A DNA stretch of 24,398 nt from a virus. Lineage: Duplodnaviria; Caudoviricetes. Below the pieces are notes generated by a model that saw only the letters and a program-made list of their open reading frames with translations, was not told the DNA's origin and made no database searches. This document shows, piece by piece, positions 1,316-14,668 of this stretch. The DNA lies in the IMG/VR virus record IMGVR_UViG_3300020044_006406, positions 1 to 24,398 of that record; one strand, 5' to 3'. A program made the position numbers and the translations under genes. Numbering within the stretch: position 1 is the first letter of the stretch; each line of letters starts with the position of its first letter.

Positions 1316-1389
1316 AAGCAAGGACAGGAATCGAACCTGTAACTTAACATATCTGCTCTGCTTTTTCCATTGTTTTAAGCTACCTTGCT
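1316..1389 (-). ncRNA. tRNA-like RNA with truncated anticodon arm
   Basis: Minus strand: AGCAAGG-TA-GCTT(AAAACAATGGAAA)AAGC-AG-AGCA(GATA)TGTT-AAGTT-ACAGG(TTCGATT)CCTGT-CCTTGCT-T. Perfect 7-bp acceptor stem and T arm; no 7-nt anticodon loop. Confidence 0.8.
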
Positions 1390-1941: not shown

Positions 1942-2188
1942 ACCTTTTTATATTGTTATCATAATCACATTCAAACTCCAACAATCCGCTTCCATCTAAA
2001 TAAATAAATGTATATATCCAATGCCTTCTACCATATAAGTATGGCATATCCTCATTCAATCTAATCCCACTATATCTAATTTCTTTCCCTAATGGAGTTA
2101 GTTGAATACGTTGGTCTAACCAAAACTCAACACCTTTGAAATTTATACATTCAGGAGGTAGTGGTTTATATTCGATTGGCTTTTTCAT
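1910..2188 (-). CDS. Hypothetical protein
   Basis: 92-aa ORF in operon orientation, directly downstream of a TATATTTG promoter element. Confidence 0.7.
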   Translation of the reverse strand: MKKPIEYKPLPPECINFKGVEFWLDQRIQLTPLGKEIRYSGIRLNEDMPYLYGRRHWIYTFIYLDGSGLLEFECDYDNNIKRYVRVSSSDTD

Positions 2189-2432
2189 TTGACAAATATA
2201 ATACTTTTTTTAAAAATGGACAAATATTTTTAGGTATTATTTCAATATAATTATTTATATCAGATTTCTTATAAAATTTAGAATTTATATAGTAACCTAT
2301 ACTACCTCCGTTTTTAGTGCATTTTATAATTTTGCCAGTCTTACAATTTATTATCTTCTTACAAGTTGAAACCTTATAGTATGGATATTCTTTGAACTGC
2401 CACTTTACTGTAAAATTGATTTGTACTATCAT
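2166..2432 (-). CDS. Hypothetical protein resembling an isolated NUMOD4-like N-terminal domain
   Basis: YPYYKVSTCKKIINCKTGKIIK...GY pattern resembles the N-terminus of NUMOD4-HNH proteins; no HNH catalytic motif. Confidence 0.6.
   Translation of the reverse strand: MIVQINFTVKWQFKEYPYYKVSTCKKIINCKTGKIIKCTKNGGSIGYYINSKFYKKSDINNYIEIIPKNICPFLKKVLYLSNEKANRI
2188..2207 (-). promoter_or_regulatory. Bacteroidota sigma-70-type promoter (-7 element), repeat copy 1
   Basis: Minus strand AAAGTATTATATTTGTCAAA contains TAnnTTTG; identical at 3122-3141, 19/20 match at 10959-10978. Confidence 0.75.
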
Positions 2433-2545
2433 ATCTTAAATATTTAATAATCAATAAAATAATGTATAGTATTGTAACTGTTAGCAAGTAGTTATGCGTC
2501 AGCTTCGTGAGTATAACTATCATTTCGTTGAAGCCAACAATATGA

Positions 2546-2770
2546 TTATAAAAAATCATCTTCTGGCGCGTCTGGCAAATAAGCCCAATGGGATATCTGG
2601 AATTTATTTTCTTTTCCTGTTTCTAAAAACCTATAAATTCCGTCACTATGGTAATTTACAGTTATTCCAATCCCGCCATTATTTTGCGGACTATATGTCA
2701 ATACATTAATTCCATTTTCAGGGTCTTTTTCGTCTTCTGAAATCCAATTTATTATACTTTGATTTTTCAT
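2546..2770 (-). CDS. DUF551-like phage protein
   Basis: WIS...P...VL...ISHWAYLPDAP pattern typical of DUF551. Confidence 0.75.
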   Translation of the reverse strand: MKNQSIINWISEDEKDPENGINVLTYSPQNNGGIGITVNYHSDGIYRFLETGKENKFQISHWAYLPDAPEDDFL

Positions 2771-2775
2771 ATTTT

Positions 2776-2952
2776 TTAATTTAAGTGTAAACTTTCATTT
2801 TTAACCCACAATCTAATAAAAATTAAATCAATTTTAAATACCCAAAAAACTTCATATCTACCATAAGGAGGATTAAATTCTACTCCAATTCCTAACCCCA
2901 TTGGTTTTTTTGAAAAGCAAATTCTTCCTTCTAATCTAAAATCTTTACTCAT
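2776..2952 (-). CDS. Hypothetical protein (58 aa, MSKDFRLEG...)
   Basis: Internal ATG at 2952 has an A-rich leader; the longer start at 3012 lies inside the attC hairpin. Confidence 0.6.
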   Translation of the reverse strand: MSKDFRLEGRICFSKKPMGLGIGVEFNPPYGRYEVFWVFKIDLIFIRLWVKNESLHLN

Positions 2953-2980
2953 AATGTTTTGTTGTTTTAAAAAGCCGAAC

Positions 2981-3115
2981 GCATAACAACTGCTATATTC
3001 AATAGCGATCATCGGGTTTAATTCAATAATTTGTTTGTACTTGTTATTTTATGTCATCATCCGAAACTTGGTTTTGTGTTTTCCGCTACTGAAATATAGC
3101 AGTGAACCGTTATGC
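2981..3115 (+). repeat. attC-like recombination site (135 bp)
   Basis: R'' GCATAAC (2981-2987); arm ACTGCTATATT-CAATAGCG; variable centre; arm CGCTACTGAAATATAGCAGT; spacer GAACC; R' GTTATGC (3109-3115). TAACA...CGTTA polarity. Confidence 0.8.
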
Positions 3116-3121
3116 CTTATT

Positions 3122-3141
3122 TTTGACAAATATAATACTTT
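3122..3141 (-). promoter_or_regulatory. Promoter (-7 TATATTTG), repeat copy 2, firing through attC into the cassette genes
   Basis: 20-bp identity with 2188-2207; TTTG upstream at 3153-3156 is a possible -33 element. Confidence 0.75.
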
Positions 3142-3189: not shown

Positions 3190-3894
3190 TTATACAAATA
3201 TAAACGGTAACTTTTTCTTTGTTCTTCCATTTATATAATGATTAAATCTATTGTAACTCCAACCTAAACTAAAAGCAGCGTCTTTTGCTGTATCATAATA
3301 AATACCTGTTTCTATATTTAACATTTGTTTTGAAAAACTATTATTTATTCCTTTTTGATTTTCACTTTTTATAATTCTTGTTTCTATACTGTCTTTTCTT
3401 CCAGCTCTTGTTTCTACACTTTTTTTAATAGATTCTGGACTCCTTTTCAATCCTGTTTGAGCAACAGACATTGCTTTTATATGAGATTCACTTAATTTTT
3501 TTCCTGTTAAAGATTCTGATATTCTTTTATTTCTTAACTTAATGTCTTTATAATTAGGAACTATGCCCTTTCTTGATTTTGATATTTTAAACTTACTTTC
3601 TTCACTTATTAATCCGCTTTTATCATTTGTCGTTGTTAGTCTACAATTTAAACCATTATTTAAAACATCATAAAAGTCCTGCCAATATCTTTCACGTTCA
3701 TTTAATAAGTCAATATCACATTCCTCTATAACTTCAAACTTATGATTTTCATATCCATATTTGTTTATAGAATAAAATATTTTAGTTTGATTTATTTTTA
3801 AATATTTATAGTCTGTAAATCTTTTTTTAATATTAATACTTTGTCCTATATAAACTCTGTTACTTGGACTTGTAATCTTATAAATTCCTATCAT
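3190..3894 (-). CDS. GIY-YIG homing endonuclease with NUMOD3 repeats and C-terminal NUMOD1-like HTH
   Basis: MIGIYKITSPSNRVYIGQS...R...E(RE)...N; repeats such as GKKLSESHIKAMS. Start placed at 3894 because upstream codons lie in a leader hairpin. Confidence 0.92.
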   Translation of the reverse strand: MIGIYKITSPSNRVYIGQSINIKKRFTDYKYLKINQTKIFYSINKYGYENHKFEVIEECDIDLLNERERYWQDFYDVLNNGLNCRLTTTNDKSGLISEESKFKISKSRKGIVPNYKDIKLRNKRISESLTGKKLSESHIKAMSVAQTGLKRSPESIKKSVETRAGRKDSIETRIIKSENQKGINNSFSKQMLNIETGIYYDTAKDAAFSLGWSYNRFNHYINGRTKKKLPFIFV

Positions 3895-3900
3895 AATAAT

Positions 3901-3980
3901 AAAAAACCTGCACATCAAAAGGTCGTAGTCTTTATCAATGCAGGAATTTAAAAAAGTTTTAGTTGTAGCTACGACTCTAC
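3901..3980 (-). ncRNA. Kissing-loop leader RNA, copy A
   Basis: GTAG(A-GTCGTAG)CTAC ... CCTGCAT-TGAT-AAAG(A-CTACGAC)CTTT-TGAT-GTGCAGG-TTTTTT; the two loops are exactly complementary. Confidence 0.75.
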
Positions 3981-5482: not shown

Positions 5483-5664
5483 AATTTCTCTATTTCTGAT
5501 TTTACATCGTACCAATATTTCTTTCCAGTTTCTTTTATCAATTCACTAACCATTAATAATGCAAATTGTTTTGAAAATTCATTCATAGAAACTCCCCTTG
5601 TGAAGTCCTTAGCCAAGTCATTGCAAGAGTTTACAAGCTCTATTGCTTTTAATCTTGCTTCCAT
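5479..5664 (-). CDS. Hypothetical phage protein
   Basis: 61-aa ORF coupled to neighbours; ends YWYDVKSEIEKL. Confidence 0.7.
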   Translation of the reverse strand: MEARLKAIELVNSCNDLAKDFTRGVSMNEFSKQFALLMVSELIKETGKKYWYDVKSEIEKL

Positions 5665-6152
5665 ATTAATGTTGTTTTATTTTTTCTATTACTTCTGAAA
5701 TAATTTTTTAAAGTATGATAATTAATTCCTAAATCTAATGAAGCTTCTTTTAAAGATTCATAAAGAATATTAGTTTTTGTGTCTAATACTTTTTTACTAA
5801 ATCTAAGTTTTACCCCATCAATTTGTTTATTAGTTATGGTTTTTAATCCATTTTTAAAAGCGTGTTTTATATTTTCGCTTCTTGTACACCATTCTAAATT
5901 AGAAATATTATTGTTTGCTTTATTTCCATCTATGTGATTAACATCTTTTTTACTTTCAATGTTATCTATAAATGTTTCAGCTACAAGTCTATGTACTTTT
6001 ATAGTTTTACTTTTATAGTTTCCTACATATAAACCTACTCTTTGATAACCTTGCTGGTCATAACTAAATTTTAAAAATTTGTTTGTTTTTGAACTAAATA
6101 CTAAACCTTCTTCAGTTACAAAATACTTTGGATATTGTTTTATTGCTTTCAT
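5649..6152 (-). CDS. NUMOD4-HNH homing endonuclease
   Basis: VHRLVAETF, VNHIDGNKANNNISNLEWCTRSENIKH; C-terminal YESLKEAS HTH. Confidence 0.93.
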   Translation of the reverse strand: MKAIKQYPKYFVTEEGLVFSSKTNKFLKFSYDQQGYQRVGLYVGNYKSKTIKVHRLVAETFIDNIESKKDVNHIDGNKANNNISNLEWCTRSENIKHAFKNGLKTITNKQIDGVKLRFSKKVLDTKTNILYESLKEASLDLGINYHTLKNYFRSNRKNKTTLIWKQD

Positions 6153-12896: not shown

Positions 12897-13243
12897 TCTT
12901 TGTTCATTTTACTTGGTACGGTTATACATAAATCATTTTTTAAATACTCACTTAAAATTCTATCAATCCTATGTTGAGGGATGAAAAATACTTTTTCTAT
13001 ATCCATAGCTCTGTTATCACGGTGGGTAAGGAAGTATTCTACAATCGCAAATCTCTCGTTAGGAGTGATAAAATTGCGTGGGTTTTTCATCGTGTGTAGC
13101 AAATCAATATTAGACCTTAAGTAATACAATTTGTGGTTTAGGTTTAATGGTTGGATGTCCAATTTAGCAAATCTCTCAACTACTGTATTCTTACTTATCC
13201 TTAATTTATCTGCTATATCTATTGCAGTTACATAGTTAGCCAT
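12893..13243 (-). CDS. Putative HTH DNA-binding protein
   Basis: TAIDIADKLRISKNTV HTH-like N-terminus and a second HTH-like segment. Confidence 0.65.
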   Translation of the reverse strand: MANYVTAIDIADKLRISKNTVVERFAKLDIQPLNLNHKLYYLRSNIDLLHTMKNPRNFITPNERFAIVEYFLTHRDNRAMDIEKVFFIPQHRIDRILSEYLKNDLCITVPSKMNKE

Positions 13244-13920
13244 TACTTCTGCAATTTGCTATTTATCTTTTCAATATACGCTTCCTTAATAGCAATAGCT
13301 TCTTCCAATCTCTCTTTAATAAGAGCAATCATTTCCTCATCTCTTTTTACTTCTATTGTGTGATGAAATTCCTCACCATCAATGATGCAATAGTTAAAGA
13401 AATATGCCTTATCAGAATTACTACATAACATTTGCATCTGCATTTGAGCATAATATTCCTTATCGATATTCTCATCAGCTACAATCTTAAAGAACTTTGT
13501 TGCTCTTGGACACTTGATTTCAAGTATCGCATCAGAACCTACAACTCCATCGGGAGATGCTCCAGCGTGTTTTCCATAAGGAAACATAAATGATTCAGTT
13601 GCTTCGGGATGCATCTCTTGGAATTTAGCAAAGGCTAATGGCTCTAACTCAACTCCACGTTGCATATCTGCACCACGATAAGAATCTTCAACCTGACCAT
13701 ACAATTCCTCAATTGCTTTTTCAATAGCGTAAGTCTTTCCTGTTTCTCCCAATCCACGAACTCCTAAAAGTTTATGGATTTCCGATGCCGTGAATTTACC
13801 GTATCTTTCTTTAAACCACTCTTTGCTACGCTGGGTTGCCTCGTAGGCATTGGTTGCCTCGTTGGTATGGTTCATTGTGTAGTATTCGCTATACTCTAAT
13901 GCTTGGTGTCTATTGCTCAT
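13243..13920 (-). CDS. YqaJ/lambda-exonuclease family recombination nuclease
   Basis: QRSKEWFKERYGKFTASE, MQRGVELEP, GASPDG, LEIKCP, YYAQMQMQM; ATG at 13920 overlaps the upstream stop. Confidence 0.93.
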   Translation of the reverse strand: MSNRHQALEYSEYYTMNHTNEATNAYEATQRSKEWFKERYGKFTASEIHKLLGVRGLGETGKTYAIEKAIEELYGQVEDSYRGADMQRGVELEPLAFAKFQEMHPEATESFMFPYGKHAGASPDGVVGSDAILEIKCPRATKFFKIVADENIDKEYYAQMQMQMLCSNSDKAYFFNYCIIDGEEFHHTIEVKRDEEMIALIKERLEEAIAIKEAYIEKINSKLQK

Positions 13921-14078
13921 AATGTTTTTAATTTCCAAATTCCTACTAAATTACTTGCGTGTCTTTTTATTGGTATTCTAAATCTATATTGACCTATTTG
14001 GTTTAAACCGATAAAGTTATATACTTCTATAAAATCTCCAATTCCAATTGTCGGTAAAACTTTATATCCTTCTTTCAT
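13917..14078 (-). CDS. Small hypothetical protein (53 aa)
   Basis: Manual translation MKEGYKVLPTIGIGDFIEVYNFIGLNQIGQYRFRIPIKRHASNLVGIWKLKTL*; ATGA overlaps at both ends. Confidence 0.65.
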   Translation of the reverse strand: MKEGYKVLPTIGIGDFIEVYNFIGLNQIGQYRFRIPIKRHASNLVGIWKLKTL

Positions 14079-14668
14079 TTGTTTAAATGTATTAAATATG
14101 ATTTATAAGCTAAATATACTGCTTCAATTTGTTTAAATTCATCTGTATTTCTTTTTGTTTCGTAAATTTTATCTGATTCAAAGAATAAATCCCATTCTTC
14201 TATTGTTTTTATTTTACAACCAATTTTGATGTTATTATCTATAATTGAATGACTCCATTTACAAAAAATTGGTAAATCGGCTGAACGTAAATTGGCTGAA
14301 CTTAAATCGGCTGAACGTAAATTGGCTGAACGTAAATCGGCTGAATATAAATTGGCTGAACTTAAATCGGCTGAATATAAATTGGCTGAACGTAAATCGG
14401 CTGAACTTAAATCGGCTAAATATAAATTGGCTGAATATAAATTGGCTGAATATAAATTGGCTGAACGTAAATCGGCTGAACGTAAATTGGCTGAACGTAA
14501 ATCGGCTGAACGTAAATTGGCTGAACGTAAATTGGCTGAACGTAAATCGGCTGAACGTAAAGAAACTTTTTCTTTTACAGCTTTTTCAACTGTTTTTTTA
14601 ATTGTATTATTTTCACACTCATATTCAAAAATTAACTCTCCAAATATTGATTTTATTTCTATTTTCAT
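14075..14668 (-). CDS. Pentapeptide repeat protein
   Basis: 19 tandem A(D/N)L(R/Y/S)S units; C-terminal IKIGC...EEW domain. Confidence 0.93.
   Translation of the reverse strand: MKIEIKSIFGELIFEYECENNTIKKTVEKAVKEKVSLRSADLRSANLRSANLRSADLRSANLRSADLRSANLYSANLYSANLYLADLSSADLRSANLYSADLSSANLYSADLRSANLRSADLSSANLRSADLPIFCKWSHSIIDNNIKIGCKIKTIEEWDLFFESDKIYETKRNTDEFKQIEAVYLAYKSYLIHLNK
14273..14560. repeat. 15-bp tandem repeat x19 (coding)
   Basis: Minus-strand unit TTA-(CGT/TAT/AGT)-TCA-GCC-(G/A)AT. Confidence 0.95.

Follow-up and report, generated by a model that had tools for sequence, protein, structure and literature searches.

A probable integron-like gene cassette with inverted genes in a Bacteroidota-type tailed phage

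The hairpin and the cassette in the phage genome

The window analysed here, 24,398 nucleotides long, is an entire contig and represents part of the genome of a tailed phage of Bacteroidota type. Similar DNA is mainly found in freshwater, lake and estuary metagenomes. We infer a Flavobacterium-like host because the hairpin of the window is 78% identical to a hairpin of Flavobacterium phage 2A and because relatives of ORF73, the gene to the left of the cassette, occur in Flavobacterium, Lacinutrix and Paludibacter assemblies. The features of the locus are given in Table 1. The window also contains two homing-endonuclease genes, one of GIY-YIG type (3190-3918, minus strand) and one of HNH type (5649-6152, minus strand). 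The GIY-YIG gene is present or absent directly behind the helicase gene, independently of the cassette module. A tRNA-like element (1316-1389, minus strand; Rfam, 38.2 bits) and a pentapeptide-repeat protein gene with a 15-bp tandem array (14075-14668, minus strand) were also observed.

Table 1 Features of the cassette locus and its phage context
Feature	Position	Strand	Remarks
ORF73, recombinase-slot gene	2166-2432	-	natively 73 aa ending ...ICPF; 88 aa in this assembly
20-bp promoter repeat, copy 1	2188-2207		module boundary; predicted +1 on the ATG at 2188
Terminal attI-like junction (putative), GTTAGC-N5-G|TT	2480-2498	+	bottom strand TAAC TACTT GCTAAC
Gene cassette (almost certain)	2492-3109 (618 bp)	+	end rule; junction swaps; cargo recurrence
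Cargo ORF 2	2546-2770	-	74 aa; DUF551, PF04448 E 1.2e-5; phrog_7704 E 2.6e-5
Cargo ORF 1	2776-2952	-	58 aa; 78 aa with the start at 3012 inside the hairpin
attC-like hairpin	2981-3115 (135 bp)	+	R'' GCATAAC 2981-2987; R' GTTATGC 3109-3115
Right flank	3110-3121	+	matches the end of the first cassette of L171, ...CAAAATAAGGCATAAC
20-bp promoter repeat, copy 2	3122-3141		module boundary; homology of relatives stops at 3122
Predicted Bacteroidota sigma-A -7 box TATATTTG (TAnnTTTG)	3127-3134	-	predicted +1 ~3122, 7 nt before R'
YqaJ domain	13243-13938		domain search
Helicase, primase, C5 methylase, YqaJ nuclease		-	
Terminases		+	

A covariance model built from 43 hairpins, all from Flavobacterium chromosomal arrays and none from phages, matches exactly the hairpin interval on the plus strand with 74.7 bits (E ~5e-14), the next match in the window reaching 11.2 bits. 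A Rfam scan at the hairpin gave no attC-type match. For 2981-3115 the folding energy of the bottom strand is -18.8 kcal/mol (z -4.16), which none of 200 shuffles equalled; the z of the plus strand is -2.36. As in the rest of this Bacteroidota family, the spacers are short at R'' (2 nt) and longer at R' (5-6 nt). In all four runs one extra T follows position 3078, which brings the hairpin to 136 nt and the cassette to 619 bp. In an alignment of 82 distinct phage hairpins that had been fitted to the structure of the model, 91.4% of the stem cells are paired (28-44% in slid controls) and 15 of the 16 stem pairs show double changes. On these sequence grounds, host and phage hairpins make up a single family.

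The left junction, G2491|TTATGCGTCAGCTT, is 489 bp away from R''. Reverse-complemented, the R'' end agrees exactly with 9 bases there, against 7 at the right flank. The same end rule, by which the R'' of a cassette complements its other end, was tested on 51 host and 27 viral cassettes. Out of 5 possible matches, host cassettes have 4.71 (2.69 when permuted) and viral ones 3.78 (2.18 when permuted); none of 10,000 permutations scored as high. With the junction swaps and the recurrence of the cargo described below, 2492-3109 is almost certainly a cassette.

No match was found in Pfam or PHROG for cargo ORF 1. A search for the window cargo in 301 Flavobacterium genomes returned nothing beyond short, AT-rich stretches of 117 bp or less (E at least 2e-6). 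The first ATG is located inside the hairpin in 24 of 77 bottom-strand viral cassettes, and judging from the reading frames the proteins of such cassettes may start with hairpin-encoded peptides.

Much of the initial annotation of this DNA stands. The attC-like hairpin holds with all its coordinates, as does the longer R'' match at the left junction. The cassette ends at G2491|T2492 and G3109|T3110 agree with the end rule, with five cassettes found at 3109/3110 and with a break of homology at 2491 in L175. Both cargo ORFs, one of them DUF551-like, are indeed on the minus strand, and a phage promoter reading through from beyond R' is predicted from the box at 3134-3127. The single bulged base was correctly seen, but it is carried by the R'-side arm and not by L'' as in classical attC sites. 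No integron integrase had been noticed, and we likewise found no tyrosine-recombinase motif in the window.

Cassette exchange and gene polarity

Exact-junction scans of viral and metagenome contigs retrieved 6 contigs besides the window; among them L170 ends early and L173 is seemingly chimeric behind its hairpin. In the window and its relatives, five different cassettes, each with its hairpin and cargo, lie behind an identical ...AATAAGGCATAAC at the 3109/3110 junction. The sequences switch within 1-2 bases of AAC, and the hairpin bodies behind are unrelated. In L033, the same promoter and ...AATAAGGCATAAC are followed by another hairpin, ending GTTAGGGG, and by another cargo (PAPS-reductase-like), while its terminal junction carries its own CCCCTAAC. 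Both L033 and L172 have their own complementary R'' ending at the terminal site. Conversely, the window cargo is found 95% identical in L175, in an unrelated context and beside a different slot gene, and identity stops at the 2483-2491 junction. Certain hairpins are also found again next to a different cargo (L178, 89%). Shuffling of accessory early genes, which the initial annotation had envisaged, is thus seen as different cassettes at the same junction in relatives.

Two side observations concern these contigs. In L175 (2440-2976) the window cargo keeps the R'' half of the hairpin only and is fused to a VRR-NUC gene; from its sequence, this unit is a domesticated cassette. In L021 (9265-10130) and L031 (2266-3034) the same phage slot holds other cassettes, which end at an RHH-like gene.

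Arrays were also found in cultured phages. Phages 2A, 6H, 23T and FPSV-D35 have 5-6 hairpins each and share identical cassettes in different orders. Two identical cassettes are neighbours in 2A and 6H and are split by two others in FPSV-D35, and one cassette is present twice in 6H. Assembled contigs of four runs contained no excision or circle joint, which is no evidence of absence.

The end rule fixes the polarity of a cassette independently of its genes. Counts were made for rule-obeying cassettes in which the longest ORF spans 60% or more of the cargo. The bottom strand carries the genes in 66 of 67 viral cassettes and in all 12 from cultured phages; in host cassettes the top strand carries them in 29 of 31 cases. 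These polarity counts apply to this hairpin family, since the hairpin finder and the model share one motif. When all rule-obeying cassettes are considered, the values are 77/79 (viral) and 14/14 (cultured) for the bottom strand and 38/47 (host) for the top strand. All 83 model matches in 60 viral sources run against the direction of the phage genes. The gene is inverted within the cassette, as opposed to the flip of a whole cassette that results from top-strand recombination (PMC5027507).

Phage-polarity cassettes were also found inside a Flavobacterium chromosomal array (L158, 6344-8389). One carries a gene of phage exoribonuclease type (182 aa; phrog_2259, E 1.5e-56). The other carries an 88-aa ORF, and its cassette ends are the same as in phage L021. 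The phage and host pools are thus connected, and gene flow from phage into host arrays is demonstrated. From their orientation, these cassettes would be antisense to transcription from the host array promoter. Three inverted host ORFs have no relative among the viral loci compared.

The terminal site, its slot genes and the promoter module

The left end of the cassette adjoins a site that recurs upstream of three kinds of genes. The motif TAACT[AC], at a distance of no more than 75 nt, precedes 31/38 ORF73, 58/69 RHH-like and 4/6 recombinase genes, versus 85/1244 control ORFs. The full core is found upstream of 12/38 ORF73 and 38/69 RHH-like genes, versus 2/1244 controls; the junctions that precede recombinase genes are devoid of the full GCTAAC core (0/6). 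A hairpin is found no farther than 2.5 kb from 23/29 ORF73, 57/67 RHH-like and 4/6 recombinase genes. These sequences point to a conserved attI-like platform at the left end, with a putative role as insertion site.

In this assembly a 1-nt insertion near position 2212 removes the stop codon of ORF73; it is absent from three of the four runs. The 105 close homologues are mostly 73 aa long, and the standalone family (~74 aa) comprises 236 clusters. The model of ORF73 (pLDDT 92.6) aligns with residues 1-63 of I-HmuI (Z 5.4, rmsd 2.6, 57 aligned; next row 2.4), and a Foldseek search with the same model gave E 0.6. PF07463 is matched by 7/96 members (best E 2.1e-5), and in some long homologues the domain is fused behind GIY-YIG-like domains. 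ORF73 is predicted to be a NUMOD4-like DNA-binding domain. It has no match in the cultured phages. The second slot gene is called RHH-like from weak matches only (DUF6290, E ~1e-3; RHH_1, E 0.085). Right before its start in L021 and L031 is the palindrome TGTATTACA, a possible operator.

Both slot proteins tend to end in ...PF. This dipeptide terminates 92/150 ORF73 representatives versus 25/1173 control ORFs, and 21/26 distinct RHH-like tails; the control ORFs that end in PF are mostly acidic. The host recombinase described below carries a KSPF motif, and ORF73 and the RHH-like proteins likewise end in ...PF. In integron integrases, the SPLD tail docks in a pocket of the neighbouring subunit, and mimicking peptides destabilise the synapse (10.64898/2026.03.10.710562). 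By analogy, a slot protein could be an adaptor or a brake on the host enzyme, which it would have to bind; we regard this idea as speculative and rather unlikely. Alternatively, the tail may resemble that of SSB proteins, or the slot proteins may serve autoregulation only.

On the other side of the cassette, the box at copy 2 of the promoter repeat fits the TAnnTTTG -7 box of Bacteroidota, at -12 to -5 (PMC9723704). A sigma-70 promoter scan performed at chance level, its consensus being of the wrong promoter type. At copy 1 (2188-2200) transcription is predicted to begin at the A of the start codon, as in a leaderless early gene, and this arrangement is conserved in relatives.

The promoter, the cassette, the terminal site and ORF73 form a module of 934 bp. 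Of 72 helicase loci, 32 are close; after removal of 8 without the downstream marker gene and of the ambiguous L029, 23 could be scored. The module is absent from 20 of these and 3 carry a cassette module, although short hairpins may have been missed in the 20 "empty" relatives, as the model missed the 77-nt hairpin of L033. Three of the 20 (L010, L013, L016) have other ORFs at the module site. The breakpoints of presence and absence coincide with the 20-bp repeat (2188 and 3122), which contains the -7 box. Two levels of mobility emerge: cassettes swap at G|TT, and the module moves between promoter repeats, likely by homologous recombination. Since the right flank matches a cassette end of L171, it is probably a cassette remnant; its sequence likely represents the 5' end of another cassette, fused to the promoter.

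Recombinase, mechanism and known systems

In some phages (L053, L127-L132) a 276-aa tyrosine recombinase occupies the slot of ORF73, and in L088 the C-terminus of the recombinase abuts ORF73. In L133 (~6000-6144) a C-terminal fragment of the recombinase is in frame with a cassette ORF, a fusion that suggests deletion of the enzyme from a slot. Compared with VchIntIA, the phage enzyme aligns in two pieces separated by 21 versus 64 residues, so that ~43 residues including I2 are missing. The host enzymes have no insert relative to the phage enzyme, and the recombinases beside arrays score 159-165 bits with TIGR02249, below the integron-integrase cut-off of 265. An integron-like recombinase subgroup with an incompletely conserved insertion has been reported (PMC8138268).

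A ~347-aa relative is present in 25 of 41 Flavobacterium genomes searched; no match was obtained in the other 16. The gene is co-directional with arrays in most of 13 extended regions, where arrays reach 20 or more cassettes; none lies beside the host recombinase in L164 and L165. A quick tree of 35 proteins unites the phage enzymes in a single clade, which sits with the enzymes of the host arrays and away from XerC/XerD (SH-aLRT 99). In the cultured phages 2A, 6H, 23T and FPSV-D35, whose arrays are shuffled, no recombinase was matched at E 1e-20, a result in favour of supply by the host. The contig is incomplete, and a phage-encoded enzyme elsewhere in the genome is possible. The acting enzyme is probably a short Xer-like host recombinase without I2. 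Supply in trans had been proposed in the initial annotation and fits the contig, which encodes no such enzyme.

Taken together, we consider it likely that 2492-3109 is a cassette of an integron-like system common to Flavobacterium-type phages and host chromosomes, with genes inverted relative to the hairpin, cut and inserted at G|TT by this host enzyme. As in integrons, the bottom strand of the cassette would fold as single-stranded DNA and be cut between A and C of AAC, and joining of R' to the terminal site would release a 618-bp circle; the ~347-aa host recombinase would catalyse both. The promoter at 3134-3127 would read through the hairpin, the cargo and ORF73. Inverted cargo would thereby be expressed in the phage early direction, and cargo of host polarity would be antisense. 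Transfer of the whole module from phage to phage would rely on homologous recombination at the promoter repeat. More speculatively, ORF73 could bind DNA at the platform and tune the host enzyme. An extended version, which we also find doubtful, would have cassettes travel both ways between phage and host behind a polarity firewall, each side's cassettes being antisense in the arrays of the other. In phages without a recombinase of their own, NUMOD4-like or RHH-like proteins would then stand in for it: their ...[CT]PF tails would mimic the C-terminal SPF docking motif of the recombinase and so draw the host enzyme to the phage attI or hold it back there.

The initial annotation had favoured insertion by an integron integrase at an attG site. 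A classical IntI of some host could have placed a single cassette into a chance site, since the G|TT junctions and the end rule are those of integrons and IntI inserts at GWT sites (10.1101/2022.09.11.507474). We judge this very improbable: the left junction is a terminal site conserved across dozens of phages, always adjoining a slot gene, the right flank matches the end of an L171 cassette, the hairpin geometry is non-canonical, and the neighbouring enzymes lack I2 and fall below the integrase cut-off. Moreover, IntI1 failed to recombine one family hairpin, P12002L_attC1 (22.9 bits on the host-only model), in a published assay (PMC9892861; n = 1). The empty site that had been predicted was not seen either: in all 6 other junction-bearing contigs G|TT is filled, and the 20 of 23 relatives without the whole module break at the promoter repeat, not at G|TT.

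Swapping by homologous recombination between similar hairpins would dispense with a site-specific enzyme. In its favour are the YqaJ-type nuclease gene of the window, the presence or absence of the module as a unit at the 20-bp repeat, and the L178 hairpin with its other cargo. Yet the switch lies 1-2 bases from AAC with unrelated hairpin bodies behind, and such swapping would not maintain the complementary ends proper to each cassette, which makes it quite improbable. It is also improbable that the cassette is a fossil, captured by an ancestor with its own recombinase and now carried as a moron. The missing enzyme, the remnant at the right flank, the frameshifted ORF73 of this assembly and the lack of an excision joint in the contigs of four runs would agree with it. 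Against it, the occurrence of five cassettes at one truncated junction implies that swapping continued once the flank was in place, the hairpin is intact, and three of the four runs do not have the frameshift.

The system envisaged here shares with integrons the AAC/GTT cores, cassette-specific complementary ends, a variable-loop hairpin conserved by structure, a putative attI-like terminal site, beside which some phages have a divergently oriented recombinase gene, and an SP-type C-terminal motif in the recombinase. It differs by the ~43 aa, including I2, that the enzyme lacks, and by spacers of 1-3 nt at R'' and 5-7 nt at R' instead of 5-6 nt per arm. In classical attC sites both arms have an unpaired central spacer of 5-6 nt, and L'' carries extrahelical bases (PMC5027507), whereas here no L'' extrahelical base is conserved, a wobble or mismatch is conserved instead, and many members are bulge-free. 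Phage cargo is inverted with its promoter at the far end, while host arrays do follow the top-strand rule (29/31), and small predicted DNA-binding genes often occupy the place of the recombinase. The window cassette thus works like an integron cassette and stands outside classical integrons in I2, spacer geometry and polarity.

Partial precedents exist. Of six sites assayed with IntI1, attC1 from the CALIN of Polaribacter phage P12002L was the only one that failed to recombine (Qi et al. 2023, PMC9892861). That attC1 is a short member of the present family, the methyltransferase genes are on the bottom strand, the end rule holds, and the attC2 oligonucleotide is the terminal region read in reverse. 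The accessible text of that paper describes ordinary CALINs with "divergent" attC sites and does not mention a dedicated enzyme, an inverted polarity or a terminal platform. The rAID-1 clusters of Bacteroidales are chromosomal immunity-gene clusters, defined by co-directional low-GC genes and a XerD-like recombinase more than 44% identical to BF9343_RS08045 (10.1101/471110). By layout only, they resemble the Flavobacterium host arrays in their XerD-like recombinase, co-directional genes and integron-like intergenic repeats; the available part of the report mentions neither phage arrays nor inverted cargo. Insertions at attG and SALINs likewise have a single attC with no integrase nearby, but their GWT targets are unconserved (10.1101/2022.09.11.507474), in contrast to the conserved, position-fixed platform found here. 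Within the openly available literature, subscription papers being outside the search, phage CALINs and rAID-1 are only partial precedents and none describes the phage system as such. The overlap with rAID-1 motifs and with the annotations of Qi et al. may be larger than is apparent.

These observations point to site-specific shuffling of genes in the early regions of phages, by a device that standard integron definitions, which rely on an I2-bearing IntI and a canonical attC, would miss. In the phylum concerned, Bacteroidota, chromosomes hold large arrays of such sites. The device would provide a concrete mechanism for the hypervariable accessory genes of Bacteroidota phages (methyltransferases, PAPS-reductase-like, DUF551), and it can already be put to the test in the cultured phages whose arrays are shuffled.

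Two plasmids carry recombinases of the host-array family. On NZ_CP094556.1 (L276, 2474-4423), a truncated one (58% identity) is found directly before tet(X3), in the position of a first cassette; no family hairpin was found near tet(X3). On Chryseobacterium plasmid NZ_CP041688.1 (L277, 4001-7250), a recombinase gene is accompanied by two hairpins (92.8 and 47.7 bits), which by these matches is a plasmid-borne system of host type.
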